Positions 4,570-54,702 of a stretch of 64,000 bases of DNA are shown in pieces (the first letter of the stretch is position 1; every line of letters begins with the position of its first letter). Source of the DNA: a virus; IMG/VR virus record IMGVR_UViG_3300049846_000568, positions 1 to 64,000 of that record. One strand, 5' to 3'. Position numbers and translations under genes: made by a program. Under the pieces are notes generated by a model, which did not search any database, was not told the DNA's origin, and saw only the letters and a program-made list of their open reading frames with translations.

Positions 4570-4952
4570 AAACAGAATCACTCAACAGTTACAGAGCATA
4601 CCAGCGTTACCTGTCGAACCAGCGTGTTCTCAAATCCAGATGGGCCCAAAACGCGCGCTGCATTGATCGAACCACAGAGATGTTTGAATCCTCGGTTAAA
4701 GATCAGCGCGAGGTAATCGCCAATGTATGTACCGGTTGTCCCGTGCGCCGAGAGTGTCTTCATCTAGCAGTGCTAGGTAGCGAGACAGAGGGTGTGTGGG
4801 GAGGAACAACCGAAGCCGAACGCAAGACGCTAATAAACCTTGCGTGGGATGTTGTGAACCCCAAGGAGTGTTGGGATTCAGAAGCCGCCGCACTTATCTA
4901 CGACATGGTGGAAGTCTACGTAGACGAACACCCGTTGGTGTATGCGGAGTAA
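4566..4952 (+). CDS. whiB: WhiB-family Fe-S transcription factor (probable non-ATG start; first ATG at 4680)
   Basis: WAQNARC (upstream of 4680)...CTGCPVRREC...GVWGGTTEAER. Confidence 0.88.
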   Translation: METESLNSYRAYQRYLSNQRVLKSRWAQNARCIDRTTEMFESSVKDQREVIANVCTGCPVRRECLHLAVLGSETEGVWGGTTEAERKTLINLAWDVVNPKECWDSEAAALIYDMVEVYVDEHPLVYAE

Positions 4953-5056: not shown

Positions 5057-5335
5057 TTGGACAACTATTCAGAAATTGAAACCAAGGTAAGGAACTGGTT
5101 GAACCATACCTCGTTCGACTTCCAAACGATTGCACCTGACGGTCAGGTACTTTCGGAAGCGGGCGCCCAGCTAGCCGAAAACGCTTTCGTCAAGTTGGTA
5201 ACAACCGTGTTAGTAAACCTTTGCGCAGCTTGGGTAAGCATTAAAGAGTTGTGGCAGTACGTCAGCAAGAGTCAGTCGCTGAAGGAGATCCTCGCGTATG
5301 TCAGACCAAGTCCGGCCGGAAGCGCTGCCGGATAA
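5057..5335 (+). CDS. hypothetical protein
   Basis: TTG-start ORF. Confidence 0.55.
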   Translation: MDNYSEIETKVRNWLNHTSFDFQTIAPDGQVLSEAGAQLAENAFVKLVTTVLVNLCAAWVSIKELWQYVSKSQSLKEILAYVRPSPAGSAAG

Positions 5336-5705
5336 CTTAGATCCGGTTTCAAAGTTTACCTTCAACGCATCCCTCGCAGCCGACGCCAAGGCGGCGAACG
5401 ATGCGATGATTGATGCGATGCAAAACAGGATCGACAAGATCATCGACCTGTTTACCGTGTCGGACATCCCTGTCATCAGGGGAATTCTAGGCGTAAGCCA
5501 CGACAAAGACGAGCTTAAGGGGCTCGCCAAAGGACTTGACCGGGTGGCCGATCTCATAGGCGTCCTTGACGAACTAGAACTTCGCAAGAAGATTCTAGAG
5601 TACGCCGAAGCAGATCCCACCTGGTTTGCTAGCGCTTTCGCTGATCTCGAATCAGAGGTTGAGCGCGTCATTACCTTAGACACCGAAGATCAGGATTTAA
5701 CGTAG
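5298..5705 (+). CDS. hypothetical helical protein directly upstream of the Ubl operon
   Basis: AAGGAG SD, 135 aa. Confidence 0.7.
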   Translation: MSDQVRPEALPDNLDPVSKFTFNASLAADAKAANDAMIDAMQNRIDKIIDLFTVSDIPVIRGILGVSHDKDELKGLAKGLDRVADLIGVLDELELRKKILEYAEADPTWFASAFADLESEVERVITLDTEDQDLT

Positions 5706-5709
5706 CGCT

Positions 5710-7047
5710 ATGAAAAGAAGCATCTCCCTAGATGAATCAGGGCTGAAGTCGATCATTGATATGGGTGCGGGAGCATCCAGATCCGATGACATTGATCTTG
5801 TCTCAGCCCTCAAGGTAATGGGTAACATGGGATATCTCAACACCGGATTGATGCCTACCGATGGCTCCGGTGTGGTCAGTGTGCGACGCGCACTTGGATA
5901 CACCCAGGTTGCATTCCAGATGGCTCCAGGTGCATACTTCACCATCTGGGGCGAGTATGAAGGTGCAAGTAGCGCCAAGAACTACATGCTCGCCCACCCT
6001 TACAGACTGTTTGTCGTTGATTTCAACGGCAACCAGTTCATGGGTGCTCGCCATTTCCTTGCAACTGCACCGATCAATTCACTTGATCAGCAGTTGTACC
6101 ATGTCAACCTACCGAACACGAACTGCCGTGGTTACAGCCGAGGAGTAACCGTTGGTTGGACGTGTCTGTATGGTCACGACATCCCCACCAAGCTAGAAAC
6201 ATTTGGTGAGTGGATTCACTGGGCGGTGCTTCGAATGAGCGGTGACGAAGCCTACAACGACGGTAATATGTACAAAACCGACGGGCCGCGTACATACCAG
6301 GAATGGCTCGGAAACGATTCCAAGAAATCATTCTTGTGGAATCCAACCGCTTGGGCAAAAAAGACAGAGGTTGAGGGATGGGAATGGACCCTAGACGAGA
6401 GTCTATGGATGCCCATCAAGGTCGCCAACAAGGATGCGCAAGAGCGTCACGACGCCAATGGCGTACCGTTTACAGTTGAGTTTGCACTGTACGGAAACTA
6501 TTCCGCACAGTACAACGACACCCCCATCCCTCGCCCCTTCAATGTGATTGATCGAGACGACCTTAAGGAACTCGATCCCAAGCTAATTGTCTCGACCATA
6601 ACCGCAGCTGTTGTTGCCGCCAAGAGCGGTAATCCCGCCAAGACGCCTATTGGTTATTGCGCAGCCTCTGGGGCGCCAATCTACAATGGTGATAGGACCT
6701 ACTGGGGCTACGATGCAGGAGGCAAGAAGGTCACCCTACTCGTTGAAGCTGCTGATCCCAACGGTTGGGTGCAAGAGTCGTCCACTGGCGGGTTCATGCA
6801 TAAGGACACGCTCTACCGCGACGTCATCACCAGTAGGTACTACAAGCATGAGGTAAACGGTCAGTCCGTCGCCAAGCGCTGCAACAAATGCCGCAAAGAC
6901 GGCTCTGTCTACTCTGTTCGTTACGGCTCTCGGAAGACCTGGTGTGCTCCATGCTTCCGAAAGTCGGAGCAGGAGAAGATGGCCAAAAGCCAGGCAACAT
7001 CCGCCACCGATACAACCACGGTCAAGCAGGCCAGCACCGACTTCTAA
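5710..7047 (+). CDS. prokaryotic E2-like conjugating enzyme (Prok-E2 family D / PRTRC protein B-like) with C-terminal Zn ribbon
   Basis: GLMP..HPYRLF..LYHVNLPNT..GWTC motif series, C-terminal CNKC/CAPC, adjacent to JAB, E1 and Ubl. Confidence 0.7.
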   Translation: MKRSISLDESGLKSIIDMGAGASRSDDIDLVSALKVMGNMGYLNTGLMPTDGSGVVSVRRALGYTQVAFQMAPGAYFTIWGEYEGASSAKNYMLAHPYRLFVVDFNGNQFMGARHFLATAPINSLDQQLYHVNLPNTNCRGYSRGVTVGWTCLYGHDIPTKLETFGEWIHWAVLRMSGDEAYNDGNMYKTDGPRTYQEWLGNDSKKSFLWNPTAWAKKTEVEGWEWTLDESLWMPIKVANKDAQERHDANGVPFTVEFALYGNYSAQYNDTPIPRPFNVIDRDDLKELDPKLIVSTITAAVVAAKSGNPAKTPIGYCAASGAPIYNGDRTYWGYDAGGKKVTLLVEAADPNGWVQESSTGGFMHKDTLYRDVITSRYYKHEVNGQSVAKRCNKCRKDGSVYSVRYGSRKTWCAPCFRKSEQEKMAKSQATSATDTTTVKQASTDF

Positions 7048-7071
7048 TAGTCTGAAAGGTTATTCATTAAG

Positions 7072-8337
7072 ATGTCTGATACCCCCGACGATCTCATCGC
7101 AGAAGAGGATATCCCCTTCTTTATGCTCGATGAGTGGACGAAGTGCTACATCGCGCTTGACTCTCTCGAAGATACCTGCAAGCACCTCGATGCTGCTGGT
7201 CTAGAGAACTACTACGTTCTCGCCATGGAGAAGCGTACGTTCGACTCCACCAACTCTGCTGGCGCAACCACGACTTCGGTGCGCTATAACCCGCAGGTGT
7301 TTGCGGTCAACACCACGATCTGTTACCGCGCGATCTCGCCAGTGGAGCACAAAGAAGTGCCGCTGGAGGAGATGGAGACTCGTGCGTCCTTTACCCTCCC
7401 AAGGATCCCCGCAGATATCGTCAATAGGCTTGACGATTTCTTCCGTCTGGTTGATCGCACTCACGGCACTGAATCTATCGTTCTACTTACCTTCGACCCG
7501 AATGCGGTCGATGAGGACGGTCGATGGAGCAGCGATGGCTGGGGTGTGCTTGTCCCCGACCAGGAGAACACCGCCACCGACTGCGAGTACGATCCAACAA
7601 GCGCCGCAGACAAGAAAGATGAGGACGTCTACATCGTAGGCTCGGTGCACAGCCATCCTCACATGAGCGCTTTCGCTTCGGGTACCGACCACAAGGATCA
7701 GAAGCACTTCGACGGTCTGCATATCACCTACGGTTGGCAGTCAAGCGTACAGAACGGCGCCACGCAGTATCATATCGAGCTGCAGATCAACGGCACGGTT
7801 TGGAGCCTCAAGCCCGAGCAGGTGTTTGAGTCTGAGCCCCCTCGTGTTCCTGACCCCTCCGTAGAGGAGTGGATGGCGAACGTCAAAAAAAAGACATACA
7901 GCACAGGGTACTCACGGCAGGGGAGCTCTCACAGCTCGCATGGGAGTACTACGGGTACATCTAGTCACCGCAGTGGCGGTTCTCTACAGCGAAGCATGCG
8001 CCTCCAGGAGATCAAGGGGCTTCCCACCGGTGCCCCCGACTGGAAGGAGAACATCCTCGTAGGACGCCTAAAAAGCACTACTGAAGAGGATTGCCCGTTC
8101 TGCAACCAGCCCCTGATCTCGCCGGACCGGACCAATCGTCTGTGCTCCGCATGCCACATGTACCTCGCAATGCCTGGCGAGACGGTCGAGGATGTGTTCA
8201 AGCAGCGCAGTGACGAGCAGCTCTACACCTGGGATATCGACCTCGAAGAGAACCCGACCAAGCCCATCGTGCTCTGGGAGCGCGACGTAGATGAGGCGAC
8301 CTTCACCAACGTCTACACCCCGGCGGGAAAAGACTAG
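7072..8337 (+). CDS. JAB/MPN+ (Mov34) metallopeptidase with C-terminal Zn ribbon
   Basis: E..HSHPHMSAFASGTD is an intact JAMM motif (HxHx7Sx2D); CPFC..CSAC. Confidence 0.92.
   Translation: MSDTPDDLIAEEDIPFFMLDEWTKCYIALDSLEDTCKHLDAAGLENYYVLAMEKRTFDSTNSAGATTTSVRYNPQVFAVNTTICYRAISPVEHKEVPLEEMETRASFTLPRIPADIVNRLDDFFRLVDRTHGTESIVLLTFDPNAVDEDGRWSSDGWGVLVPDQENTATDCEYDPTSAADKKDEDVYIVGSVHSHPHMSAFASGTDHKDQKHFDGLHITYGWQSSVQNGATQYHIELQINGTVWSLKPEQVFESEPPRVPDPSVEEWMANVKKKTYSTGYSRQGSSHSSHGSTTGTSSHRSGGSLQRSMRLQEIKGLPTGAPDWKENILVGRLKSTTEEDCPFCNQPLISPDRTNRLCSACHMYLAMPGETVEDVFKQRSDEQLYTWDIDLEENPTKPIVLWERDVDEATFTNVYTPAGKD
7887..7893 (+). other. candidate -1 frameshift site A_AAA_AAG inside the JAB gene
   Basis: A8G run at 7885-7893; downstream GTACTC..GAGCT/AGCTC..GAGTAC stem; -1 frame stops at 7962-7964. 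Confidence 0.45.
8325..8331 (+). other. candidate programmed -1 frameshift site G_GGA_AAA
   Basis: In-frame heptamer one codon before the JAB stop; -1 frame is open into the Zn-finger ORF; hairpin CTTCTC-TACA-GAGAAG follows. Confidence 0.7.
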
Positions 8338-8957
8338 GAGGCGTCTTCTCTACAGAGAAGGTAAACGGCGAAGAGCTAGGGTACTGCCCCACATGCTCAG
8401 CCGTTCTCTTGTCTGAGTATGAGCGAAGCCTCCCCAAATGCCCATACTGCGAGGCGCCTCTTAATGTGGAGGCAGGGTGGTACATCAAGTGCGAAAAATG
8501 CAATGCGCCACTCGAAATAGAATCTCCGATGTGCGAGAACTGCCACGAGATCTACTACGACGATTTCTGGACGAAATTCCTAGATGAATGGGATCCAGAG
8601 TTGGACCTTATCGACTTCGATGAGATGGAAGAGGTCGAAGTAGACTACACCAAGATGTACAAAGACTCTCACAACCTATGCTGCAATATGCCGCCTGAAC
8701 AGTGTGAATGTTTGCGTAAGGCAACATGGAACGACCTATACGACGTTGGTCTTGACTATGTCGAGCAGTACCAAGGAGATATGGATTCACCGTGTTGGCA
8801 GTGCAATAGGGTATGTGAAGCATCGTGTCCACCACTTCGAGTGTGGGCGCGCGAAGCAATCTTGGGCGCTAGAGATATCGGGAAGATATCTCCGTGTTCG
8901 GAGTTTGTTTCTTGGGATTCCGTTTCCGTTGGTCCAATACAGGACTACGAATACTGA
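8331..8957 (+). CDS. multi-CxxC Zn-finger domain, probably expressed as a -1 frameshift extension of JAB
   Basis: Frame is open from 8295 with no ATG/GTG/TTG until 8409; first CPTC motif (8385-8396) precedes the TTG. Confidence 0.75.
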   Translation, partial: RLGGVFSTEKVNGEELGYCPTCSAVLLSEYERSLPKCPYCEAPLNVEAGWYIKCEKCNAPLEIESPMCENCHEIYYDDFWTKFLDEWDPELDLIDFDEMEEVEVDYTKMYKDSHNLCCNMPPEQCECLRKATWNDLYDVGLDYVEQYQGDMDSPCWQCNRVCEASCPPLRVWAREAILGARDIGKISPCSEFVSWDSVSVGPIQDYEY

Positions 8958-8974
8958 TAGGATCAGACTAACCA

Positions 8975-9778
8975 ATGGCTGACAAGGCATATAGGTTCGT
9001 AGTGATTGGCGCAGGCGGCATCGGATCGTCCCTGTGCAATTACCTCGCGATGATGCTGGAGTACAAGGCACCATTTTCGGGCCTACTCATCGTAGATGGC
9101 GACACATTCGAACCAAAGAACAAAGAGCGCCAGCTCTTCAAGGAGTATGGCAACAAGGCTGAGTCTCTCGCAGCCGATCTCGCACCTCAATACTCCAAGA
9201 CCGCCATCATTCCCATTGGGAAGTGGGTGGTGGAGACGGTTCCAGAGGATGCGGAGAGCGATACTCTGATCACCGCCGCGAGCCTACTACAGGAGGGTGA
9301 CGTAATCTTCCCCGTAGTAGACAACTTCAAGGCACGTAAGCTCATCTTCGACGTTGCTTCCACCATGGACAACATCGATGTAATCTCTGCTGGTAATGAC
9401 GACGCGCTATTCTGTAGCATGTACCACTACCAGCGTCGAGATGGTAAGGATGTAACCATGCATCCGCGCCACCTTCACCCGGAGTATGAGAACCCACCGG
9501 ATCGAAACCCGGGTGAACTCAGCTGTCAGGAGCGAGCCGCTATCGAAGGCGGTACTCAGCTTCTGGCAGCAAATGTTGGAGCTACCGCACTCATCCTAGG
9601 AAAGGTGCAGACGGTAGTATTCGACGCAGCAGAGCGAGACGACGAGAATGAGGACTACCCAGACGAAACGTTCTGGCAGATGGACCAGGGTCTCGCCGCA
9701 TCGTTCAACCGTTCAGCTGAACAACTGGCGTCGGCGGAAGTCGAGGCTGGTACTCTTACAACTACAGGAGTAAGTTAA
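8975..9778 (+). CDS. ThiF/E1-like adenylyltransferase (PRTRC-type, no Zn-binding CxxC)
   Basis: GAGGIGS, DGDTFEPKNKERQ, NKAE, VVDNFKAR, candidate catalytic Cys in ELSCQE. Confidence 0.93.
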   Translation: MADKAYRFVVIGAGGIGSSLCNYLAMMLEYKAPFSGLLIVDGDTFEPKNKERQLFKEYGNKAESLAADLAPQYSKTAIIPIGKWVVETVPEDAESDTLITAASLLQEGDVIFPVVDNFKARKLIFDVASTMDNIDVISAGNDDALFCSMYHYQRRDGKDVTMHPRHLHPEYENPPDRNPGELSCQERAAIEGGTQLLAANVGATALILGKVQTVVFDAAERDDENEDYPDETFWQMDQGLAASFNRSAEQLASAEVEAGTLTTTGVS

Positions 9779-9779
9779 T

Positions 9780-10037
9780 ATGGCTCAGGAAGCGCAGGGT
9801 AGCGCAGCACAGCAGGGCAGCCAGAACGCTCGCGTTCGTTACGGCGTCCACAACCGTCAGGGTGAACTGGCGGGTAAGAGCATTGCGCAGGTTCGCGCAG
9901 AGCTTGGTCGTCCTTGGCAGCTGCCAACGGATGCTTCGGCATTCAAGGGCACCGAGAAGCTTGATGAGGACTACGTCATCAAGCCCGGTGAGTCGATCGA
10001 GTTCCACCGTCGCCAGGGTGAGAAGGGTCTCGCCTGA
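9780..10037 (+). CDS. ubiquitin-like (beta-grasp) protein, precursor ending GEKG-LA
   Basis: GKSIAQVR...DYVIKPGESIEFHRRQGEKG pattern typical of MoaD/PRTRC-C-like Ubls; directly after E1; strong AGGAG SD. Confidence 0.85.
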   Translation: MAQEAQGSAAQQGSQNARVRYGVHNRQGELAGKSIAQVRAELGRPWQLPTDASAFKGTEKLDEDYVIKPGESIEFHRRQGEKGLA

Positions 10038-10066
10038 AGCTCGGTAGGGCCTAACTAAGGTCCTGT

Positions 10067-10107
10067 AGGAGATAGCCCCAGGGTGTTCGCGCCCTGGGGC
10101 TATTCCT
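10067..10107 (+). terminator. strong hairpin ending the E2-JAB-E1-Ubl unit
   Basis: ATAGCCCCAGGG/CCCTGGGGCTAT 12-bp stem with TTCG in the loop, no U tail. Confidence 0.65.
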
Positions 10108-10133
10108 CAAATCCCGGTACTAGAACGCCCGGT

Positions 10134-10814
10134 ATGCCATTGAAGACTTCTCAGAAAATCTCATCTGTTGAGCGAGCCTGTAGGTTTGAAGGATGGGAGC
10201 CCAAGCAGAAGGCTAATCGGGCTGCAAGATCAAACTTTCCAGACATCATCTCTACCGGCTCGGCGGTTGGACTTTTGGGTCCCGCTGACGTACGGTTCTA
10301 TAGCTCCGTTGGTTATGAACAGGATCAAATAACCACCGTCGAGCGCGTTTACTTCCCCAATTACATCACACTGAAGAACGACTTGACCACGTGTGGATAC
10401 GGCGGAGTAAACGTTGTCAACGAAGACATCTTCGTTTACCTGTCTACTGTCAAAGACGGTAGCATTAGCGCTTTGTTCTTAGATCTCTTTGGTTTTGCAG
10501 ACCTGTGCTCCAATTCCAAAACAAAGTCTCGCAATGCTAATCTCGAACTCGTCTGCTCAAAGTTGGCCGACAACTTTCACCTGCAGTTCACGTACGAGAA
10601 CCAACGTTCTGCCCCCCTCTGGCAACAAAGGGCGAAAGAAGCCCTTATAGACCAGGACCGCTCCGTGTATGTCCTGCGAGTCTGCAAGAAGTTGTTAGAG
10701 AAAAGGGGCATTGAAGTAGACAACGGTATTACCTGTGAGTATTCCGGTCTACTTTCCGATGGGCGTCCTCAGAGAATGATCACGTCCTCTTTTGTTGGCC
10801 ACAAGGCTAACTAA
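10134..10814 (+). CDS. putative class I SAM-methyltransferase-fold protein
   Basis: GLLGPAD, ITTVER, VNEDIF, ALFLDLFG resemble Rossmann MTase motifs. Confidence 0.45.
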   Translation: MPLKTSQKISSVERACRFEGWEPKQKANRAARSNFPDIISTGSAVGLLGPADVRFYSSVGYEQDQITTVERVYFPNYITLKNDLTTCGYGGVNVVNEDIFVYLSTVKDGSISALFLDLFGFADLCSNSKTKSRNANLELVCSKLADNFHLQFTYENQRSAPLWQQRAKEALIDQDRSVYVLRVCKKLLEKRGIEVDNGITCEYSGLLSDGRPQRMITSSFVGHKAN

Positions 10815-16145: not shown

Positions 16146-16922
16146 ATGCCTAAGTTTATCGAAGTAACCATCGGAAACAACTGGACGCAGATCCGCAACG
16201 GCCACGAACACATAGACGTTCACAGCACGGATGTGATTCGTGAGCTGTTTGGATTCCCTGTCGAGCACAGCAATATCTTGCCTCCTGTAGTTCGATGCTT
16301 CAATCCATCCATGTCGGCTTTCCTGGTAGAGCGTACCCCCTTTGTTGCCTCCATCTGGTACAAGAACGCCGGTACACATGATCATGGCGAGTTCGTTAAC
16401 TACAAAATCCCTATCCCGTGGACTGTGTACTTAGTCATACTAGACGCAGAAAACAACCCAATAGAACTTGGGGCTTGGGCTCGCCCTTCGCAGATGTACG
16501 TAGAGGAAGACGAGCTTTATCACCTTCCGATGCCTAACGTCTATGACGGTGGTGGCACGTGTTTCGGTACCGCAAAGCTCGATAGTGGTCGCGATAAAAT
16601 GACCATTGGAGACGGTATTACCGCGGCCATCCAGGGATTCTGGTCTTCCCAGTTCAACAACGATCTTTCATGGTACCCCTACATTGCCGAGTGGATTGGA
16701 GCGGATCCATCGAAATATGATTGGGGAGATGTTGCGTTAGCTATGGAAGCTTGGTCTCAGCTTGGGATCCAAGACGTCATGAACGCCCCAATGCGTAAAG
16801 AAACCACCGTCGGAACCGTCATCCAACATCGCCTCTCGACCAACCCAGCGAAGTTGAGCCCGGCTGGTGCGGTGATGAAGCTGGAGATGTTGTTCCAGCG
16901 TTGGCTCTCAGGAGGCAAGTAA
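16146..16922 (+). CDS. Prok-E2 family D-like protein (paralog 2)
   Basis: ILPP..IPIPWTVYL..LYHLPMPNVYDGGGTCFG..FWSSQFNNDL. Confidence 0.75.
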   Translation: MPKFIEVTIGNNWTQIRNGHEHIDVHSTDVIRELFGFPVEHSNILPPVVRCFNPSMSAFLVERTPFVASIWYKNAGTHDHGEFVNYKIPIPWTVYLVILDAENNPIELGAWARPSQMYVEEDELYHLPMPNVYDGGGTCFGTAKLDSGRDKMTIGDGITAAIQGFWSSQFNNDLSWYPYIAEWIGADPSKYDWGDVALAMEAWSQLGIQDVMNAPMRKETTVGTVIQHRLSTNPAKLSPAGAVMKLEMLFQRWLSGGK

Positions 16923-25938: not shown

Positions 25939-26200
25939 CCCCGGTGATGTCGTCGGCCAGGCCGTCGTCAACGTGCGGACGTGCGAGCAAAGCAACCCGC
26001 CATGCATGGACGACTACCCCGAGAACGTGTGGCTTTGCCCCGGTTGTCAGGGGGACGGCACCTACAACGCCGAACAGGTGGAAAGAGTGGAACCAAAAGA
26101 CAGTCCTTTTGTGGTCGTCGGACGAGACAACCCAGAAGGGCCGTCGCTTGTTGCTCGTACGGACGGCTACTACCCAGTGGGGGATAAGGAAGATGAGTGA
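25931..26200 (+). CDS. hypothetical Cys protein
   Basis: coupled ORF; GC drops in the 3' half. Confidence 0.5.
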   Translation: MPDPGDVVGQAVVNVRTCEQSNPPCMDDYPENVWLCPGCQGDGTYNAEQVERVEPKDSPFVVVGRDNPEGPSLVARTDGYYPVGDKEDE

Positions 26201-26321
26201 GCGCAAGAAGCCGAAGACAATTGCTGTTATTGGAATTGGTTTCGCCAAGAAGAAGACCCCAAAGGCTAAGGCAAAGAGTGACAAGTAGTTCGTCTCTTAA
26301 GCCGATCAGTCAAGGTAATAC

Positions 26322-26495
26322 ATGGTTCTAAAGAAACACGCTCGACCATCTGATGCTTCTATCAATCAGACGCTTACTAAGTATCAAGCAAAGATAGATG
26401 AGTTGATGGCAGAATTGAAGCGCAAGGATGAAACCATCATCGAGCTCCAAGCCGAGATCTCCTATCTCAAATCCGCTATGAGAAGCGGATACTAA
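26322..26495 (+). CDS. small coiled-coil protein (57 aa)
   Basis: MVLKKHARP..KIDELMAELKRKDETIIELQAEISYLK; AAGG SD. Confidence 0.55.
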   Translation: MVLKKHARPSDASINQTLTKYQAKIDELMAELKRKDETIIELQAEISYLKSAMRSGY

Positions 26496-26498
26496 TCT

Positions 26499-26573
26499 GG
26501 TCCGTTAGTTCAGCCTGGTCTAGAACACTGGCTTGTCACGCCAGCGACACGGGTTCAAATCCCGTACGGACCG
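26499..26573 (+). tRNA. tRNA-Asp(GTC)
   Basis: CTGGC-TT-GTC-AC-GCCAG. Confidence 0.95.
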
Positions 26574-26575
26574 CT

Positions 26576-26629
26576 AGTGAGAGAATTCCCTGGGGCAGTT
26601 AACTCCAGAGGCTGCAGCTCTCACTGCCA
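26576..26629 (+). ncRNA. minihelix-like hairpin RNA ending in G-CCA
   Basis: AGTGAGAG/CTCTCACT stem followed by GCCA, abutting tRNA-Glu. Confidence 0.45.
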
Positions 26630-26705
26630 GCCCCGTTGGTCTAGTTTGGTTTAGGACGTCTGCCTCTCACGCAGAAGATCGCCGGTTCAAATCCGGCACG
26701 GGGTG
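26630..26705 (+). tRNA. tRNA-Glu(CTC)
   Basis: TCTGC-CT-CTC-AC-GCAGA. Confidence 0.95.
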
Positions 26706-26707
26706 CT

Positions 26708-27007
26708 ATGGCTAAGATAGCATCAATCGTCCCAGAAGTTGGTGACGTCATCTACGAATCGTATATGGCGGGTATTCCTCTCCTGGTTGTCGAGGTTAAA
26801 GAGCGTTCGTACGTTTGCAAAACCGTCAATGGTGACACAAAGATTTTGAGTAGGTACTGGACTTCTCGCGGCCCGCTTGGGTCGAGCGAACATGAAGTAA
26901 AGTACTCTTCTTACGTTGACCTTTGTGAGCAGAACGAGCGCAAAGCCAATAACATGCGAGAAAAGCTGAACAAGCTGCTCGCTATAGAAATCTCCACGCC
27001 CTCTTAG
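26708..27007 (+). CDS. hypothetical protein between tRNAs
   Basis: starts 2 nt after tRNA-Glu, stop inside tRNA-Arg. Confidence 0.6.
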   Translation: MAKIASIVPEVGDVIYESYMAGIPLLVVEVKERSYVCKTVNGDTKILSRYWTSRGPLGSSEHEVKYSSYVDLCEQNERKANNMREKLNKLLAIEISTPS

Positions 27008-27071
27008 CTTAATTGGATGAAGCACCTGACTACGGATCAGGAGATTACAGGTTCGAGTCCTGTAGAGGGTG
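26998..27071 (+). tRNA. tRNA-Arg(ACG)
   Basis: CCTGA-CT-ACG-GA-TCAGG. Confidence 0.95.
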
Positions 27072-27092
27072 CAACGAGTAAGAAGTAAAGCC

Positions 27093-27842
27093 ATGAAGAT
27101 CCTAGTATGTGGAGACTGGCACGGAAACACAGTCTTTGTAGAGAACATATTTAACGCCATCGCCCGGGAGGGGTGGGAGGTTGACGTCATCGTACAGGTG
27201 GGCGACTTTGGATTTTGGGAACATAGGGATGAAGGCGTTCACTTTCTCGACTCACTGAGTACCTTCTCCCAGGAATCTGGGATCCCCATCTATTGGGTTG
27301 ACGGCAACCACGAGAACTTTGAAATCTTGTACGACCAGTATCTCAAGGGTCGTTACGATGAGTTCATTGAAATCCGCCCCAGCATCTACTACATCCCAAG
27401 AGGCAAGACCTGGGAGTGGGATGGGGTGAAGTTCATGGGGTTTGGTGGAGCTTACTCCATCGACAAGAATCATCGTACCCCCTATATCTCCTGGTGGCCA
27501 CAAGAAATGGCATCAGACGAAGAGATAGAGCGGGTGAGAAGCAAAAACGAGCAGGTTGATGTTCTCTTCAGCCACGATGTTCCTCAGGGCGTGGACGTTC
27601 TAACAGCCTCTGGTGGTTTTTTGCTACCCATCGCTTCCGCTGAACATTCACGGTACCTGATTCGTCAAGTCGCAGAAGTTGCACGGCCAAAACTCATTGT
27701 CCACGGTCATTACCATTTCAGATATGGGATGTTGTGGGGGGCGCCCTGGGGCGAAGTGAGTGTCATAGGTTTGACCTGTGATGGACGGCAGTTTCGTGCT
27801 GCTACCTATATGCTTGATACTAACGAACTTCTTCCTAGCTAG
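27093..27842 (+). CDS. calcineurin-like metallophosphoesterase
   Basis: GDWHG, GDFG, GNHE, SHD, HGHYH. Confidence 0.92.
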   Translation: MKILVCGDWHGNTVFVENIFNAIAREGWEVDVIVQVGDFGFWEHRDEGVHFLDSLSTFSQESGIPIYWVDGNHENFEILYDQYLKGRYDEFIEIRPSIYYIPRGKTWEWDGVKFMGFGGAYSIDKNHRTPYISWWPQEMASDEEIERVRSKNEQVDVLFSHDVPQGVDVLTASGGFLLPIASAEHSRYLIRQVAEVARPKLIVHGHYHFRYGMLWGAPWGEVSVIGLTCDGRQFRAATYMLDTNELLPS

Positions 27843-27855
27843 ACAAAGAGCAGAC

Positions 27856-28443
27856 ATGATTGCACTGAGCAAAAAGGCCAAGTTTCCTAATAACGCAAAC
27901 ACCGACAACGTTGCCGAGTGTCTTGATGGTCTGTTCGATAGCCTAGACAAGTTCTTCTTTGACCACGAGGTAGATTACCGCTACATTGATCGTCGCGATT
28001 TCGAAGATATACTCGAACGATGCCTTACGGACGACGAGTGGGAAGGCATAAAGCACCAAATCCGTGAGCCCCTCGCACACTTTAGTGAGGCTATCGACAA
28101 TGCCATGGTGGATATCTTGGTCTCTAATGGGCTTTTAGATCCAGAATCTGTCAATGTGGGGTTGGAGCATACGAGCGTGGCGCAACCATCTACATCAACA
28201 TCAGAGACAAGCTGGCATTATTCTCCGGAAGAGGTCTGGGGCACCGGTACCGGCTTTCAGCCCTCGACCGCGTCGACAGGGTCTTGGGGGATCACAAACC
28301 ATTCATCGCCCATGCTTCCAACCACTGTCATGAATTCGGTTCAGCAGCTCGTAGACGACATTTCAAACGTGGTAGTGGGCGGAACCTCCGTTCCACCGCC
28401 CGAGGAGCAAGAAGATCCCGTAGAAGGACCAAGTGATGAGTAA
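27856..28443 (+). CDS. hypothetical protein, low-complexity C-terminus
   Basis: ORF. Confidence 0.6.
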   Translation: MIALSKKAKFPNNANTDNVAECLDGLFDSLDKFFFDHEVDYRYIDRRDFEDILERCLTDDEWEGIKHQIREPLAHFSEAIDNAMVDILVSNGLLDPESVNVGLEHTSVAQPSTSTSETSWHYSPEEVWGTGTGFQPSTASTGSWGITNHSSPMLPTTVMNSVQQLVDDISNVVVGGTSVPPPEEQEDPVEGPSDE

Positions 28444-28657
28444 ACCAATTATCCCTGCTCCAGGTAGTAGAATCCGTCTCATCGAGATGAAAGACGTTTC
28501 CCCCGTGGAGCCCGGTAGTACGGGTACCGTAACCGATTACTCCCACGAAGATCAGGATCATGGTGTTGTGTTTGTGGGCGTCGAGTGGGACAACGGACGC
28601 AGCTTACAACTTGTAGTTGGCTTGGATGAGTGGGAATTCATTAAGAATGAAGGCTAG
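28433..28657 (+). CDS. DUF4314-like protein
   Basis: GSRIRLIEMKD..PGSTGTV..VEWDNGRSL. Confidence 0.7.
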   Translation: MMSKPIIPAPGSRIRLIEMKDVSPVEPGSTGTVTDYSHEDQDHGVVFVGVEWDNGRSLQLVVGLDEWEFIKNEG

Positions 28658-28856
28658 GAAAGTCTACACCAACTCTGAGCTTGAAGACCTAATCGAGAAG
28701 TGGCATACCAGTCACGACGTGGCGTGTAGTCTGTATAGTTACCTTGGTTGGACTCGTGAAGAGTATGAGAATTGGCTGGAAACCAACAGGCAGCCGGGTG
28801 AACTAACTCTTCGTGACAAGTTGAAACTTCATAGAAAGCGCTTGGTTAAAAGGTGA
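28647..28856 (+). CDS. hypothetical protein
   Basis: KWH..LYSYLGWTREEYENW. Confidence 0.6.
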   Translation: MKARKVYTNSELEDLIEKWHTSHDVACSLYSYLGWTREEYENWLETNRQPGELTLRDKLKLHRKRLVKR

Positions 28857-29146
28857 TCAGACCCGGAATCAAACCAGATCCGCGCATGAAGATTCTCACA
28901 GAAAGACCTTCGAGGTACCAGGCGGAGAACACACTACTGGCTGAATACATGGCTGGCCGTGCAATCTACTTTTGCATGCCTGCGTCGTATCCAGAAGAAG
29001 TGCTTGGGCGCGAATTTGCCCTTGAAGAGTGGGACGAAATCATCGAGTCTGGCATTCTCGTGCAGATTTCTGATGATAACGACATCTGGTCTTTGATCAA
29101 TGCGACGCTGCGCGAAAAGCTCTCAAGCATAGGTATAGCGCCTTAA
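28853..29146 (+). CDS. hypothetical protein
   Basis: GTGA overlap. Confidence 0.6.
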   Translation: MIRPGIKPDPRMKILTERPSRYQAENTLLAEYMAGRAIYFCMPASYPEEVLGREFALEEWDEIIESGILVQISDDNDIWSLINATLREKLSSIGIAP

Positions 29147-29150
29147 ACCA

Positions 29151-29237
29151 GGAAGGTTGGCAGAGTCAGGCTTAATGCACCTCCCTGCTAAGGAGGAGTG
29201 GGTAACACCACCACAGGTTCGAATCCTGTACCTTCCG
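29151..29237 (+). tRNA. tRNA-Ser(GCT)
   Basis: CCTCC-CT-GCT-AA-GGAGG, long variable arm. Confidence 0.95.
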
Positions 29238-29310
29238 CTATGGACAATGAACCCTCCAGGTCTCAGAGACATCAAACAACTTTTCCCATCGTGTACACTC
29301 TTGGTCTTCA

Positions 29311-29532
29311 ATGATAAGTTTGAATCGTAAGTCTAAAATCTCCCAAGATGCTCCGTTCGTAATCATGTACACGGTTAGCAATGATGAAAATGGTGAGGGT
29401 CCTTTTGGGTTGTACCAAGACTATGACATAGCTCTTGAACAGGCGTACGACTACGGATTTAAATATGTCTTTAGTCAGCGTTACTATCCTGATGGTGGAT
29501 CCACTCGTCTTGAACGTAGCATTGACTACTAA
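29311..29532 (+). CDS. hypothetical protein
   Basis: ORF. Confidence 0.55.
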   Translation: MISLNRKSKISQDAPFVIMYTVSNDENGEGPFGLYQDYDIALEQAYDYGFKYVFSQRYYPDGGSTRLERSIDY

Positions 29533-29563
29533 GAGGACGAATACAACGAAGACATATAGTCAC

Positions 29564-29651
29564 GGAGGGTTGGCAGAGCGGCCGATTGCACTAGTCTTGA
29601 AAACTAGAGGGTGTCACAGCCCCGTGGGTTCAAATCCCACACCCTCCTCCA
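29564..29651 (+). tRNA. tRNA-Ser(TGA), CCA encoded
   Basis: CTAGT-CT-TGA-AA-ACTAG, long variable arm. Confidence 0.95.
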
Positions 29652-29660
29652 AGGAAATAG

Positions 29661-29957
29661 ATGTTCAACACAGAGTTCTTCACTGGCTTCAAGCCTAACG
29701 AGATACGCACCATTCATAAAGCACTCGTTAATCTCAAAAAGTACTGCTATGCAACGTCTCAAGAGATTAACGAGGATCCGGATCTCGCTAATGTCGACTT
29801 CGACTTCCCAGATTACGGTGGTTTACCAGAGAAGATTTCTGGCAAATTAACTACCGATCAGGTGGATGCAATTCAAGATCTTATTCAATGGGTTGATCCT
29901 GAAAAGGTTACGCTTGAGATGACAGCATATGCGCTAGCTAGTGGGTGGACTTCCTGA
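29661..29957 (+). CDS. hypothetical protein
   Basis: AAGGA SD. Confidence 0.6.
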   Translation: MFNTEFFTGFKPNEIRTIHKALVNLKKYCYATSQEINEDPDLANVDFDFPDYGGLPEKISGKLTTDQVDAIQDLIQWVDPEKVTLEMTAYALASGWTS

Positions 29958-30337
29958 TGTATGATTACACTGGACGTGTCATCCGAGTTGTCGACGGCGA
30001 CACCCTTGACGTAGAGATCGACTTAGGCTTCCACGTCTCTGTAAGGGAGCGGGTTCGTCTAGCTGGCATCAACTGCCCAGAAATCAACACGGACGAGGGC
30101 AAAGCTGCTGCCGAATATGTTAAGGCCTGGGTGTCTGGACTAGATGTTGTGGAGATCAGTACTATAAAGACACCCAAAGGTGACCGTCAGGAGAAGTACG
30201 GACGATACCTGGCCGTCATCATGAAGGGTGACGCTGCTAAACCTTCTGGTTTTAGCTGCCTCAACCAAGACCTTATCAAAGAGAATCACGCAAGCTTTTA
30301 CGGCAAGGTGGACATCGATAAGGTCGTAAACCCATAG
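29957..30337 (+). CDS. thermonuclease (SNase) family nuclease
   Basis: VVDGDT, RVRLAGINCPE, EKYGRYLA. Confidence 0.92.
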   Translation: MYDYTGRVIRVVDGDTLDVEIDLGFHVSVRERVRLAGINCPEINTDEGKAAAEYVKAWVSGLDVVEISTIKTPKGDRQEKYGRYLAVIMKGDAAKPSGFSCLNQDLIKENHASFYGKVDIDKVVNP

Positions 30338-30422
30338 AAGGTTGCTAGAGCGGACGAATAGGCTACCCTGGAAAGGTAGTGTGGCTTCACGGTCACCGTG
30401 GGTTCGAATCCCACACCTTCTG
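30336..30422 (+). tRNA. tRNA-Ser(GGA)
   Basis: CTACC-CT-GGA-AA-GGTAG, long variable arm. Confidence 0.93.
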
Positions 30423-30438
30423 CTGATACAATAAGACT

Positions 30439-31020
30439 ATGATTTACTTTACTTCAGACCTTCACTTTGGTCACGCAAACATTATCAAGTACTGCGACAG
30501 GCCATTCGATAACACCGATGAAATGGCCAAGGCTCTTATCGGAAACTGGAACTCTGTGGTTGACCACGAAGATACGGTTTTTGTGTTGGGCGACTTTGCA
30601 ATGGGGGATCGCGAAGCGAATGTCCCTCTTGCCCGCCACCTAAACGGTAAGAAGATTCTTGTTGCAGGCAACCACGACCACTGCTGGCGTGGGTTAGTAC
30701 CCAAGAAGGGACAGGACTTTGTGGACTGGTGGCGCCAGTTCTTCCTTGACAACGGTTTTACCGCCGTCTTGGACCATGTAGACCTGTACTTCGGGGAGCA
30801 TGATCTGAAGCTCACGCTAAACCATTTCCCTTTTACTGGAGACTCCTACGACGAAGACCGGTACAAGCGGTGGCGTCCAGTAGACGACGGACAATGGGTT
30901 ATCCACGGACACATCCATGACCTCTGGCGCGTAAACGGGCGGATGATCAACGTTGGTTGTGATGTGTGGGACTTTACCCCGGTTCCTATGGAGACGATCC
31001 TAGAACTGATTGAGAGGTAG
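30439..31020 (+). CDS. metallophosphoesterase (phage type)
   Basis: SDLHFGH, GDF, GNHD, HGHIH, INVGCD; TGn-TACAAT 6 nt before ATG. Confidence 0.92.
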   Translation: MIYFTSDLHFGHANIIKYCDRPFDNTDEMAKALIGNWNSVVDHEDTVFVLGDFAMGDREANVPLARHLNGKKILVAGNHDHCWRGLVPKKGQDFVDWWRQFFLDNGFTAVLDHVDLYFGEHDLKLTLNHFPFTGDSYDEDRYKRWRPVDDGQWVIHGHIHDLWRVNGRMINVGCDVWDFTPVPMETILELIER

Positions 31021-31083
31021 TTCAGTTGGCAGAACGCCAGGCTCTGGTCCTGGATGTCGGGGGTTCGAACCCTCCCCTCTCAG
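31011..31083 (+). tRNA. tRNA-Gln(CTG)
   Basis: CCAGG-CT-CTG-GT-CCTGG. Confidence 0.93.
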
Positions 31084-31086
31084 CTC

Positions 31087-31281
31087 ATGAAGAAAAGACC
31101 AAATAGACGCAGGCGCATCTGCAATGGTCGCAAATGCGAACTAGAGTATTCTTTTGAGTACGACTCTTACTATTGCACAAAGCATGATACCTGGATTGAG
31201 GATAGATGTGATGATCCAGAGTGCGTATTTTGTGCAGACCGCCCTGATAATCCCGGAGTAGTAAATGATCAGGCCGACTAA
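31087..31281 (+). CDS. Cys-rich small protein
   Basis: YDSYYC..WIEDRCDDPECVFCADRP. Confidence 0.65.
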   Translation: MKKRPNRRRRICNGRKCELEYSFEYDSYYCTKHDTWIEDRCDDPECVFCADRPDNPGVVNDQAD

Positions 31282-31582
31282 GTCCCATAATGAAGGTTCT
31301 ATTGAGTTTTCAGATGACGTGATCTCCTACGCTTATGCCAGGGATCTACTATGTGAGTCATCCTACGATGGGTGGACGTGTTCACTCCATAAGGGACACA
31401 AGGGCGATCATGAGGGTTGGCCTTCTCATCTCGTAAATAGGAGCAGAAAGCCCGGGAGGAAATGGAAAAAGGTGACGGTCCGAAAGTCGACAAGCGCCAG
31501 CAGATTTGTTTACGTTCCGCGACTTTCTACTAGCAGTGTAACGCTTGGCAGTGCGACCACTACGTGGACTGATCCACAATAA
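31265..31582 (+). CDS. hypothetical protein (C..C..H..H)
   Basis: CSLHKGHKGDH. Confidence 0.55.
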   Translation: MIRPTKSHNEGSIEFSDDVISYAYARDLLCESSYDGWTCSLHKGHKGDHEGWPSHLVNRSRKPGRKWKKVTVRKSTSASRFVYVPRLSTSSVTLGSATTTWTDPQ

Positions 31583-31589
31583 TTACCTT

Positions 31590-31663
31590 ACTGGTGTAGC
31601 TCAGCCGGTTAGAGCGCTACTCTGATAAAGTAGAGGTCACAGGTTCGAGTCCTGTCACCAGTA
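31590..31663 (+). tRNA. tRNA-Ile(GAT)
   Basis: CTACT-CT-GAT-AA-AGTAG. Confidence 0.95.
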
Positions 31664-31677
31664 CCGCAATACAACAA

Positions 31678-31751
31678 GGTTCTGTAGCTCAGTTCGGAAG
31701 AGCGGCCGGCTGAAAACCGGTAGGTCGGTGGTTCGAATCCACCCGGAACCA
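31678..31751 (+). tRNA. tRNA-Phe(GAA)
   Basis: GCCGG-CT-GAA-AA-CCGGT. Confidence 0.95.
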
Positions 31752-31756
31752 CTCAA

Positions 31757-31894
31757 GCCCGCCCAGGAAAACGCTTTGCGTTGGGATAGCCAGATGGGTG
31801 TCATAGGCTGCCAAATACCAACTATGACAGGCCGGTAGGAAATGGTTTGGCTAAGCTCATCAATTGGCGAGAAGTTCGATTCTTCTCACGGGTA
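31757..31894 (+). ncRNA. 138-nt tRNA-like structured RNA
   Basis: GCCCG/CGGGT-A terminal stem, AGAAG-TTCGATT-CTTCT T-arm, large pseudoknotted insert. Confidence 0.65.
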
Positions 31895-31896
31895 CT

Positions 31897-31970
31897 GTGG
31901 CCGTAGCTTAGATGGTTAAAGCGTCGGGATGTGGCCCCGAAGATCGTGGGTTCGAGTCCCACCGGTCACC
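31897..31970 (+). tRNA. tRNA-His(GTG)
   Basis: TCGGG-AT-GTG-GC-CCCGA, C73. Confidence 0.93.
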
Positions 31971-31982
31971 CTTGGAGGTGCA

Positions 31983-53416: not shown

Positions 53417-54202
53417 CTAACTGTATGGTGGTGAAATGATTAGGTGCTGTAGCTGGTCTTGATTCTCTTGAACCCACCTAGGGTAAAAGTAGTTGATGGG
53501 AGTATACCTTAACGGGAACCTGTCAAATGGGTCGATGCCGTTCTTAGCGCATCTGTGCATGTGCGATGCAGCCTTAAATTCCTCTGTGTTCATCTCAGTG
53601 TGAGCAAAGGATTCAATTTTCTTGCGCGCTCTTTCTTGATCTCCCAAGAACGAGAAGTGCCACCCACCAATATTGTGCCCAACTATCGGAAGGTTTGCTG
53701 CTCTTAATTCCTGCGGCGAAGGGCCATTCTGTAGGTCGCCATTCAGAACCGCAACCGGACGAGCACCCTGGTTACAGTGTTTCGGCACTTGCCAGTTAAG
53801 ATTCCAGAAATACTGCACATTGTCAATACGAACCGGAAAATTCTGAAGCCATCTCTTAGCCCCTAAAACTGTGGGGCTAACAATTTCGTCAGCGTCTGAG
53901 ATTAGAATGGTAGCGTCGCTTGGGGCCCACTCAACGGCGCTCCTAATAGCGTTGCGCTGATAATACTCTCGTTCCCATGGTGTCATATCCTGACTCGGAA
54001 AACTGATTTGATAACGGAGAATCTTATGTCTCCATTTGTCAACCCAATTCGGTAGATCGTCAAAGTAAAATGGCTTGGGCAGACCGGTAAATGTTTGGTC
54101 TGCCTCTACCACCACAAACTCGTCTACCACATCACCAAGCTCTTCAAGGCGAATCCTAAGAACGTCAGTCTCATTGTAGTATGTGAATGCGTCAACTATC
54201 AC
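53417..54202 (-). CDS. glycosyltransferase family 17-like
   Basis: YNETDVLRIRL, TFTG, REYYQRN, SDADEI, GWHFSF. Confidence 0.88.
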   Translation of the reverse strand: MIVDAFTYYNETDVLRIRLEELGDVVDEFVVVEADQTFTGLPKPFYFDDLPNWVDKWRHKILRYQISFPSQDMTPWEREYYQRNAIRSAVEWAPSDATILISDADEIVSPTVLGAKRWLQNFPVRIDNVQYFWNLNWQVPKHCNQGARPVAVLNGDLQNGPSPQELRAANLPIVGHNIGGWHFSFLGDQERARKKIESFAHTEMNTEEFKAASHMHRCAKNGIDPFDRFPLRYTPINYFYPRWVQENQDQLQHLIISPPYS

Positions 54203-54702
54203 TTTTCAAACACCACCACTTCTTCGTGCGCCAACATTGCATACGAACGAAATAGATCCTCTGCGTGATAGTTTCTACTGAAGACATCAAACAAACCCGA
54301 CGCCCAAAAGGCTGGATTCACAAGCACGATGACGCCACCACGCTTCATAAGTTCGTATATCTGATGACTTAATTGTTCTGGCGAACCAAAGTTAATGGGA
54401 TGGGCGTAGTTCACCGACACAAACGTGTCACAATAATCGTGACCAAAGTAGCTGTCGTTGATCTCTGGTAGCCAGCTAAAACTATGCTCGTATGGACTAT
54501 CGCCTTCACCATAGTAAAGATGCCAAGATTCCACACCAAACTCAGGATCACGAAGAACGGGTACAAGGTCGTAATCGTCCCCATAATAAATGAGTGGACT
54601 GCGTGGGTCTACAACATCCTTTAGGATGTGTGCAAAGAATCGCCAGTTAAAGCTTGACTCCCTCGCAGCGTAGCCAGCCCCAATCGCTTCCTCTCTTGAC
54701 AT
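54199..54702 (-). CDS. methyltransferase-like protein
   Basis: LMKRGGVIVL; lies in the glycan cluster. Confidence 0.45.
   Translation of the reverse strand: MSREEAIGAGYAARESSFNWRFFAHILKDVVDPRSPLIYYGDDYDLVPVLRDPEFGVESWHLYYGEGDSPYEHSFSWLPEINDSYFGHDYCDTFVSVNYAHPINFGSPEQLSHQIYELMKRGGVIVLVNPAFWASGLFDVFSRNYHAEDLFRSYAMLAHEEVVVFEK

Follow-up and report, generated by a model that had tools for sequence, protein, structure and literature searches.

The conjugation of ubiquitin-like (Ubl) proteins in prokaryotes has been demonstrated experimentally for systems encoded by the host (Type II CBASS, Bil and Bub), and there it serves mostly in anti-phage defence. Clusters of genes for E1-like, UBC-like, JAB and small beta-grasp proteins were predicted on prokaryotic mobile elements by Iyer, Burroughs and Aravind in 2006 (PMC1779556), and the reports from phages in that work are limited to Ubl and JAB modules of tail assembly, not full E1/E2 cassettes. 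E1-like genes of viruses have also been described in a preprint on Asgard viruses, where they are presumed to hijack the ubiquitin of the host (10.1101/2021.07.29.454249). Here we analyze an operon within IMGVR_UViG_3300049846_000568, a linear viral contig of 145.8 kb from IMG/VR, of which the first 64 kb form the window that was studied. The operon encodes an E2-like protein, a JAB peptidase with a probable zinc-ribbon extension, a ThiF-type E1 and a small Ubl protein. Taking sequence, fold prediction and gene context together, we conclude that this is probably a virus-encoded system that conjugates a ubiquitin-like tag to proteins.

Relation to described systems

The functionally closest system is Bil (BilABCD, types I and II), which has in common with the viral cassette a Ubl protein, an E2, a JAB/JAMM peptidase and an E1 within a single operon. 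Bil contains no dedicated E3, and its E2 is thought to choose the targets (PMC11601596). The chemistry expected of the two systems is alike, with a thioester cascade leading to an isopeptide bond with lysine. However, Bil is encoded by the host and directed against phage, whereas the present cassette is carried by the phage itself. The Bil E1 comprises an inactive and an active adenylation domain together with a Cys domain (PMC11601596), whereas the E1 here has 267 amino acids and one ThiF domain. The viral locus differs further in the 300-amino acid E2-like domain with its zinc-ribbon tails, the presence of extra E2 paralogs, the extension of JAB by a frameshift, and the order of the genes. 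No Bil model was matched in PADLOC, where the only matches were weak ones to the CBASS E1-E2 models.

PRTRC systems are likewise borne on mobile elements, and combine JAB (PRTRC_A), an E2-like protein (PRTRC_B) and a ThiF-type E1. Among models for named systems, those of PRTRC were the only ones to give any match to the viral JAB and to one of the two E2 paralogs (paralog 1, below). The scores were 24.4 bits for TIGR03735 (A; cut-off 101.8), 14.8 bits for TIGR03737 (B; cut-off 131.5) and 21.0 bits for TIGR03736 (ThiF; cut-off 144.8). None of the PRTRC models in NCBIfam matched the Ubl protein, and there is no ParB-like gene (ParB_N) in the 146-kb contig.

In bacterial Bub (6E/DUF6527) systems the E1/E2/Ubl(/JAB) pathway relies on an E1 domain that is minimal and homodimeric, and the JAB trims the Ubl precursor (PMC11601596). 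The E1 and E2 of Bub lack a catalytic cysteine, form oxyesters and are always accompanied by the DUF6527 protease. By contrast, Cys184 of the viral E1 and Cys152 of the E2-like protein are invariant, and no DUF6527 gene (PF20137, BubE) is found in the genome. On these comparisons the cassette does not qualify as a member of Bil, Bub or PRTRC. With respect to the families of PMC1779556, paralog 1 is a member of Prok-E2_D by the Pfam cut-off, whereas the family of the E2-like protein in the operon lies outside every Pfam model.

Among cultured phages, the Bacillus jumbo phages vB_BceM_WH1 (gp215-gp216) and Edson have a long JAB gene that adjoins a ThiF-type E1 gene on its upstream side, as here. 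Comparison of gp215 with the JAB of the window by hhalign gave 95.7%, and gp216 is 28% identical to the E1. No homolog of the Ubl protein, the E2-like protein or the paralogs was found in the Bacillus jumbo phages by tblastn, and the same method revealed no cultured phage with the Ubl protein or paralog 1. The proteins gp213 and gp214 were considered as equivalents of the E2 and rejected (hhalign 0.2% and 1.3%, respectively); the alignment of gp214 is collinear and ends at LY..P..NC, but the match is not significant. The JAB-ThiF pair of vB_BceM_WH1 occupies positions 182508-184817 of its record (locus L009), with genes of the NADAR and SPFH/Band 7 families after it, and both members of the pair are distant homologs of the JAB and E1 of the window. 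A preliminary description of the window, made from the sequence alone, knew of no characterized phage system with this architecture. None was found in the literature that we searched; most subscription papers fell outside its scope, so the absence is unproven.

A conserved operon

The five open reading frames of the cassette all lie on the + strand (Table 1), separated by 24, 71, 17 and 1 nt. They had been read as a contiguous and co-oriented set for an E2-like protein, a JAB, a zinc-finger protein, an E1 and a beta-grasp Ubl protein, and the reading frames are found just where that account placed them. The gene order small protein, E2-like, JAB, (zinc finger), ThiF, Ubl recurs in seven independent metagenomic contigs of 10-238 kb (L002-L007, L012 and L013), with protein identities of 30-90%. 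Because the order is kept over the seven contigs, and because the homolog families are large, we regard the operon as a module that a large clade of big phages has conserved, and not as a chance juxtaposition.

The limits of the operon had been set at 5710 and 10107. The 3′ limit is borne out, but the 5′ limit probably falls one gene too late, the operon starting at 5298. The additional gene encodes a conserved protein of 135 amino acids and is probably part of the operon. It adjoins the cassette upstream in L002, L003, L005, L007, L012 and L013, with 28-87% identity, and is thus retained in L012, where no gene for the E2-like protein was found in the 20 kb that were read. The 135-amino acid protein matched no known family or fold, and a neighbor search in a protein atlas gave no usable result.

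At its other end the operon closes with the strong hairpin that had been noted, a double stem-loop. None of 200 shuffled sequences folds equally well, and there is no U-tract. It is a probable terminator or RNA-stability element.

One of the seven contigs, L013, is a 193-kb contig of NCBI assembly GCA_049314295.1 that carries the whole cassette together with WhiB genes; the protein of this assembly is labeled Flavobacterium sp. Probably the contig is that of a phage and was binned into a bacterial metagenome-assembled genome.

The ubiquitin-like protein

The last gene of the operon encodes a protein of 85 amino acids. An AlphaFold model was obtained with a pLDDT of 80, rising above 90 in the core, and shows the order beta-beta-alpha-beta-beta-beta with disordered termini. 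The top Foldseek matches of this model are all to ubiquitin, NEDD8, SUMO, ISG15, Caldiarchaeum ubiquitin or TtuB, with a probability of 1.00 and TM scores of 0.5-0.66. The protein therefore has the fold, and also the flexible tail ending in glycine, that are the marks of a beta-grasp modifier or carrier. The preliminary description had named a Ubl protein without the beta-grasp fold as one ground for giving up its reading; the model shows that fold.

The family is large, with 241 clusters at E ≤ 1e-3, many of them from contigs of 100-240 kb. In 118 of 120 homologs the chain ends exactly at the glycine of ...HRRxGEKG, and this residue, Gly83 in the window, is the presumed conjugation end. Residues beyond the glycine, one or two in number, occur in just two other homologs and in the window copy, where they are Leu-Ala. 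These rare caps imply processing by a peptidase.

The E1 and the possibility of a sulfur carrier

The E1 is small, with a single ThiF domain that scores 54.2 bits against the Pfam model (cut-off 28.1). The nucleotide loop GAGGIG, D116 and Cys184 are all invariant. The Pfam score, the glycine-rich loop and the Mg-binding aspartate are together those expected of the ThiF/MoeB/E1 adenylating enzymes, and Cys184 lies in the ELSC motif where a candidate catalytic cysteine had been proposed. The profile of the E1 matched nothing among the PDB sequences at 1e-3, and its C-terminal half could be aligned with no solved E1. The closest solved sequence, that of Uba4 (E = 0.007), aligns with no more than residues 7-131, so we can only infer the placement of Cys184 in the crossover loop, and this must be counted on the debit side of a conjugation mechanism.

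The similarity to Uba4 also bears on the main alternative, that this is a sulfur-carrier system. The E1 would then adenylate and thiocarboxylate the beta-grasp protein to provide sulfur for thiolation of phage tRNA, in the manner of TtuB/TtuC or Urm1/Uba4, or for a cofactor, and JAB would do nothing beyond trimming. ThiS, MoaD, TtuB and Urm1 have the same fold and the same C-terminal glycine, and TtuB is among the structural matches of the Ubl protein. The window encodes 18 tRNAs, and the best NCBIfam matches of the E1 are MoeB, ThiF and UbaA, although these, like all of the sulfur-carrier and PRTRC E1 models, lie far below their cut-offs. Against this, the partners that such a system would require for thiamine, molybdopterin or tRNA thiolation (a rhodanese, a PP-loop thiolase of the TtuA/Ncs6 type, ThiG, MoaE and a cysteine desulfurase) are all missing from the 146-kb contig, although control genomes gave positive results. 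The argument against a sulfur carrier from the lack of thiamine and molybdopterin genes, already made from the window, thus extends to the whole contig, but its force is limited by an estimated completeness of ~69% and by the host, which could supply sulfur-transfer enzymes. Moreover the E1, with its 267 amino acids and one ThiF domain, has no rhodanese domain, and a sulfur carrier would leave no role for three E2-like proteins with an invariant cysteine, nor for the zinc ribbons. We consider a sulfur-carrier function improbable.

The E2-like protein and its paralogs

The E2-like protein comprises an N-terminal domain of the catalytic type and a C-terminal zinc ribbon. It has 14 homologs in a word-indexed database, and an exhaustive profile search raised this number to 200 cluster representatives, whose lengths range from 297 to 761 amino acids; for 178 the E value is below 1e-30. 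At least two CxxC motifs lie beyond residue 300 in 125 of the 129 long members. The protein itself found no match in Pfam, NCBIfam, PADLOC or PHROGs. Not one of 71 diverse members of the family matched Pfam, the threshold for Prok-E2_D (PF14460) not being reached, and a search of PDB sequences with the family profile gave only insignificant matches to zinc ribbons. It founds a family of ~200 clusters that has no Pfam model.

The signature of E2 enzymes is HPN...G-x-[IV]-C-L. In 161 sequences of the present family N136, G149, W150, C152 and Y154 never vary (100%), and P135 is retained in 95%. An invariant cysteine shortly past (H)PN, as required of the E2/UBC motif, is thus present, with a longer spacing between the asparagine and the cysteine. 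The LPN..G.C motif recognized in the preliminary description is therefore real, in the form PN...GWxC. Cys139 was rejected as the catalytic residue, for it is conserved in just 86% of the sequences, with threonine or asparagine in the other 14%. Cys152 is fully conserved, in contrast to Cys139, and lies in the sequence PN-x15-G-W-[IV]-C-L-Y; it is the likely catalytic residue.

A model of the N-terminal domain (pLDDT 75, pTM 0.77) contains a helix, a four-stranded meander, a loop and further helices, in the order of elements found in UBC. Canonical UBC E2s account for ~13 of the 50 matches listed in an unbiased wide search, and ~32 of 50 after re-ranking, in alignments of 105-135 residues with Z scores of 2.5-3.2. 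No bacterial E2 structure of the Cap2, BilB or BubB type is among the fold-search matches listed. The UBC fold that had been proposed is consistent with the order of elements in the model, but the fold matches are weak, with Z about 3. In a neighbor search with a protein language model the domain falls beside viral clusters in which 13-15% of the members carry Prok-E2_D (PF14460).

Two further genes of this type, distant paralogs of the E2-like protein, lie in tandem and overlap each other at 16146-17779. The product of the first, paralog 1, exceeds the Pfam cut-off for Prok-E2_D (Table 1), and its alignment with the family of the E2-like protein by hhalign gave 62% (E = 7.6e-5). The family of paralog 2 (24 sequences) aligns with that of the E2-like protein much better, at 97.1% (families A11 and A9; E = 5.7e-11), from the beta-meander to the PN motif, and three of its 24 members match Prok-E2_D. 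Orthologs of paralog 2 share contigs with the cassette, including L012. Since the E2-like protein is related to paralog 2, and it is paralog 1 that passes Prok-E2_D, the link of the E2-like protein to Prok-E2_D is only transitive. We conclude, mainly from the motif and these transitive profile links and weakly from structure, that the E2-like protein appears to be a divergent member of the UBC/Prok-E2_D-like superfamily.

Several observations weigh against a conjugation system in which this protein is the E2. The spacing from PN to Cys152 is 16 residues, compared with ~8 in canonical E2s, and the active-site loop (residues 136-148) is poorly modeled, with low confidence. Foldseek matched the N-terminal domain to nothing in the PDB at E ≤ 0.001, all values being 0.04 or greater. 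In the VIA searches, both wide and re-ranked, the best Z scores (3.4-3.7) belong to actin capping protein, above those of the E2s (Z ≤ 3.2). The contig L012 has retained the 135-amino acid gene, JAB with its zinc-finger region, E1, Ubl, an AAA ATPase and both E2 paralogs, yet no gene for the E2-like protein was found within the 20 kb that were read. This suggests that the E2-like protein is accessory, or can be replaced by the paralogs, and that it is not essential to the core. Lastly, E1/E2 chemistry can depart from expectation, as it does in the Bub systems (PMC11601596).

These points lead to a different wiring of the same components, in which the Prok-E2_D-like paralogs are the real E2s and the E2-like protein of the operon is a non-catalytic or E3-like adaptor with zinc ribbons, or in which the intermediates are not thioesters of the named cysteines. 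The gene content of L012 would be explained in this way, only the paralogs reach Pfam Prok-E2_D, the N-x7-C spacing in the family of paralog 2 is more canonical, and the oxyesters of Bub involve Tyr or Ser (PMC11601596). However, it is hard to explain without catalysis why the cysteine in GW[IV]CLY, past the PN, should be 100% conserved over ~160 diverse sequences, and in most loci the E2 position of the operon is held by a gene of this family. Such a rewiring seems to us unlikely.

The JAB peptidase and its probable frameshifted extension

The JAB protein scores 24.4 bits with Pfam Prok-JAB (E = 2.8e-5), just below the cut-off of 25. Its JAMM motif, E134 ... H193-x-H195-x7-S203-x2-D206, is complete, so that the protein conforms to the JAB/JAMM (MPN+) consensus E ... 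H-x-H-x7-S-x2-D. The motif is invariant in five orthologs, as is the CxxC ribbon of the C-terminal region, and the intact JAMM motif seen in the preliminary description is therefore confirmed. The closest solved sequences are an Rpn11-like protein of Caldiarchaeum (E = 8e-4), Rpn11 and AMSH.

The zinc-finger region that follows had been taken to be a gene of its own. As a domain with multiple zinc ribbons it is real, but a free-standing gene is improbable, since the region is probably a −1 extension of JAB. From 8295 onward the −1 frame has no stop codon, and the TTG at 8409 is the first ATG, GTG or TTG in it. The frame nevertheless encodes a complete zinc ribbon, GKRLGG...YCPTC-x14-CPYC, and a start at 8409 would lose the first half of this. 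A slippery heptamer, GGGAAAA, is placed in phase at the end of the JAB frame. The identical heptamer occurs in phase and in the corresponding position in L002 (8909-8915), L007 (10520-10526) and L012 (8557-8563), and in L003 the −1 relation is present with the weaker GGTAAAA. The ribbon GK.[LI].G...YCxxC-x14-CPxC and the lack of a start codon are conserved in the window, L002, L007 and L012, where the domains are 27-49% identical; in L012 the gene caller had left the −1 stretch uncalled. The Pfam DZR model gives a weak match to the Cys-rich domain. In L005, L006 and L013 a single reading frame of 551-577 amino acids covers both JAB and the Cys-rich domain.

The phased heptamer in four loci, the open −1 frame without a start, the conserved ribbon and the in-frame fusions found elsewhere all point to a programmed −1 frameshift, which very probably yields both JAB and a JAB-zinc finger fusion of ~628 amino acids. 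No stimulatory RNA structure is conserved 3′ of the heptamer, the RNAalifold consensus reaching only −1.5 kcal/mol over the four loci. That the two parts are fused in some phages and joined by frameshifting in others indicates that they are tied together.

Proposed mechanism

The interpretation of the operon as a conjugation system follows from the presence of all four enzymatic and substrate roles in one tight, conserved operon. In addition, the tag has the ubiquitin fold and almost all its homologs end at glycine, and JAB is closest to JAMM peptidases of the deubiquitinase type. The Ubl protein would be made with its two-residue Leu-Ala cap, which JAB would remove to expose Gly83. The E1, probably as a homodimer, would adenylate Gly83 and then probably hold the tag as a thioester of Cys184. 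From there the tag could pass to Cys152 of the E2-like protein, to the equivalent cysteine of the Prok-E2_D-like paralogs, or to both, and the charged E2s would hand it to lysine residues of target proteins. Targets or partners are likely to be recognized through the variable tails of the E2-like protein, with their zinc ribbons, and through the Cys-rich domain attached to JAB. JAB may also reverse conjugation, and the −1 frameshift at GGGAAAA would set a fixed ratio of JAB to the JAB-zinc finger fusion.

The cassette lies in the early/replication arm of the genome, where genes for regulators of the WhiB type and for an unfoldase resembling Cdc48 are its neighbors, and for this reason we consider a role in host takeover or counter-defence more likely than one in virion assembly. 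Takeover, counter-defence and competition between phages are all guesses as to the role of the system. A function in assembly would resemble that of gpI and gpK of phage lambda, with the Ubl protein and JAB used in proteolytic maturation or a chaperone step of the virion or the replisome, and with no general tagging. Clusters for tail assembly do carry pairs of Ubl and JAB (PMC1779556), and gpK is reported to cut the Ubl domain of gpI (PMC12908700, a meeting report). However, the cassette does not lie among the structural genes, the E1 and E2-like proteins present here have no place in the lambda module, and the Ubl protein stands free with an exposed C-terminal glycine in place of a fusion to a structural domain. 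We regard an assembly function as highly improbable.

Genomic context and host

Beyond the operon, the window encodes an AAA+ ATPase that has one AAA domain and is of the Cdc48/p97/VAT type. The closest solved sequences are archaeal VAT and the D2 domain of p97/Cdc48, with E values from 4e-55 to 1e-49, and the matches to the CDC48 and PAN models of NCBIfam do not reach their cut-offs. In L005, L006 and L013 the gene for the ATPase immediately follows that for the Ubl protein; in L002, L003, L012 and the window itself it comes 1.6-2.4 kb farther downstream. Its relatives also occur in phages in which no cassette was seen, and it may be functionally independent of the cassette.

Directly past the hairpin in the window, L002, L003, L007 and L012 is a gene for a conserved protein of 226-256 amino acids. 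The GTG at 10083 was rejected as its start because it sits within the hairpin, and translation probably begins further downstream.

The carrier had been described as a virus, and the IMG/VR contig bears this out, with its 18 tRNA genes in the window together with genes for DnaE, a DnaB-type helicase, a ribonucleotide-reductase fragment, an amidase and the AAA ATPase. Sixteen of the tRNA genes are spread across an 11.7-kb stretch with small reading frames in between. Searches for close relatives, by DNA and by exact peptide words, were negative for both the phage collection and viral_contigs, from which the record of the window and its near relatives may be excluded. At 53417-60178 on the − strand there is a cluster of genes for GT2 glycosyltransferases and RmlD-like reductases, which hints at glycan synthesis directed by the phage.

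Genes for WhiB and RNase H precede the cassette in a conserved order in the window, L002, L003, L005, L007, L012 and L013, and the relatives add Rv2632c-like genes. This block is a signature of an actinobacterial host and suggests an early-gene region. The closest DnaE sequences are those of Streptomyces phages, at just 38% identity. On the basis of WhiB, the Rv2632c-like genes and the affinity of DnaE, an actinobacterial host, as had been proposed, is likely. A tyrosine or serine integrase was not found in the contig, which is ~69% complete; this fits the lytic life style put forward earlier, and a large, probably lytic actinophage is a reasonable description of what is an incomplete, uncultured genome.

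Table 1. Positions of the operon components and of other features in the 64-kb window.
Feature	Position	Strand	Remarks
First operon gene, conserved 135-amino acid protein (probable member)	5298-5705	+	Stop 4 nt ahead of the 5710 start
E2-like protein, 445 amino acids	5710-7047	+	Residues 1-300 form the N-terminal catalytic-type domain
P135-N136 codons of the E2-like protein	6112-6117	+	
Cys152 codon of the E2-like protein	6163-6165	+	Likely catalytic residue
C-terminal zinc ribbon of the E2-like protein	6880-6954	+	CxxC-x17-CxxC; C391, C394, C412, C415
JAB/JAMM metallopeptidase, 421 amino acids	7072-8337	+	C-terminal CxxC...CxxC ribbon; C341, C344, C358, C361
Slippery heptamer GGGAAAA	8325-8331	+	G_GGA_AAA in JAB frame; 4 nt ahead of JAB stop; candidate −1 site
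Cys-rich multi-zinc-ribbon domain	8331-8957	+	−1 frame of JAB; reading frame 8409-8957 is the part with a start codon
Minimal ThiF-type E1, 267 amino acids	8975-9778	+	
GAGGIG loop of the E1	9008-9025	+	
D116 codon of the E1	9320-9322	+	
Cys184 codon of the E1	9524-9526	+	
Ubiquitin-like beta-grasp protein, 85 amino acids	9780-10037	+	C-terminus ...HRRQGEKG-LA
Gly83 codon of the Ubl protein	10026-10028	+	Presumed conjugation end
Double stem-loop ending the operon	10042-10107	+	12-14-bp perfect core; ΔG = −46.2 kcal/mol; z = −5.3
Conserved 226-256-amino acid protein	10083-10814	+	Start probably further downstream
AAA+ ATPase, Cdc48/p97/VAT type, 530 amino acids	12012-13604	+	Single AAA domain; N-terminal 230 residues without match
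E2 paralog 1, 258 amino acids, Prok-E2_D-like	16146-16922	+	Pfam Prok-E2_D 28.2 bits (cut-off 25), E = 1.8e-6
E2 paralog 2, 292 amino acids	16901-17779	+	Family invariant P152...N155...L162-C163
WhiB-family gene	4641-4832	+	62 bits; of 14 control genomes only Corynebacterium gives a signal
18 tRNA genes	377-686 and 20277-31971	+	

Significance

If phages widely possess their own version of Ubl conjugation, this would reverse the present picture, with the same chemistry being used on the side of the phage in the conflict. The clade has several useful features: its tag is small, consists of one domain and has a fixed C-terminus, its E1 is minimal, and it has three proteins of the E2 type. The −1 frameshift would be a built-in translational device that diversifies the deconjugating enzyme. 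The operon also offers concrete, clonable parts with which to ask what the phage tags, and would add a new branch to the history of the E2 enzymes.

Actinobacterial hosts use Pup rather than ubiquitin. It is conceivable, though doubtful, that the cassette, the two E2 paralogs and the AAA ATPase make up a pathway owned by the phage in which selected host proteins, such as factors of defence or housekeeping, are first tagged with the Ubl protein of the phage and then extracted or unfolded by the ATPase. If true, this would be a viral analogue of the ubiquitin-p97 axis of eukaryotes, and the ratio of JAB to the JAB-zinc finger fusion set by the frameshift would tune deconjugation. The linkage to an ATPase of the Cdc48/p97 type raises the idea that unfolding directed by a protein tag predates the eukaryotes, in viruses.

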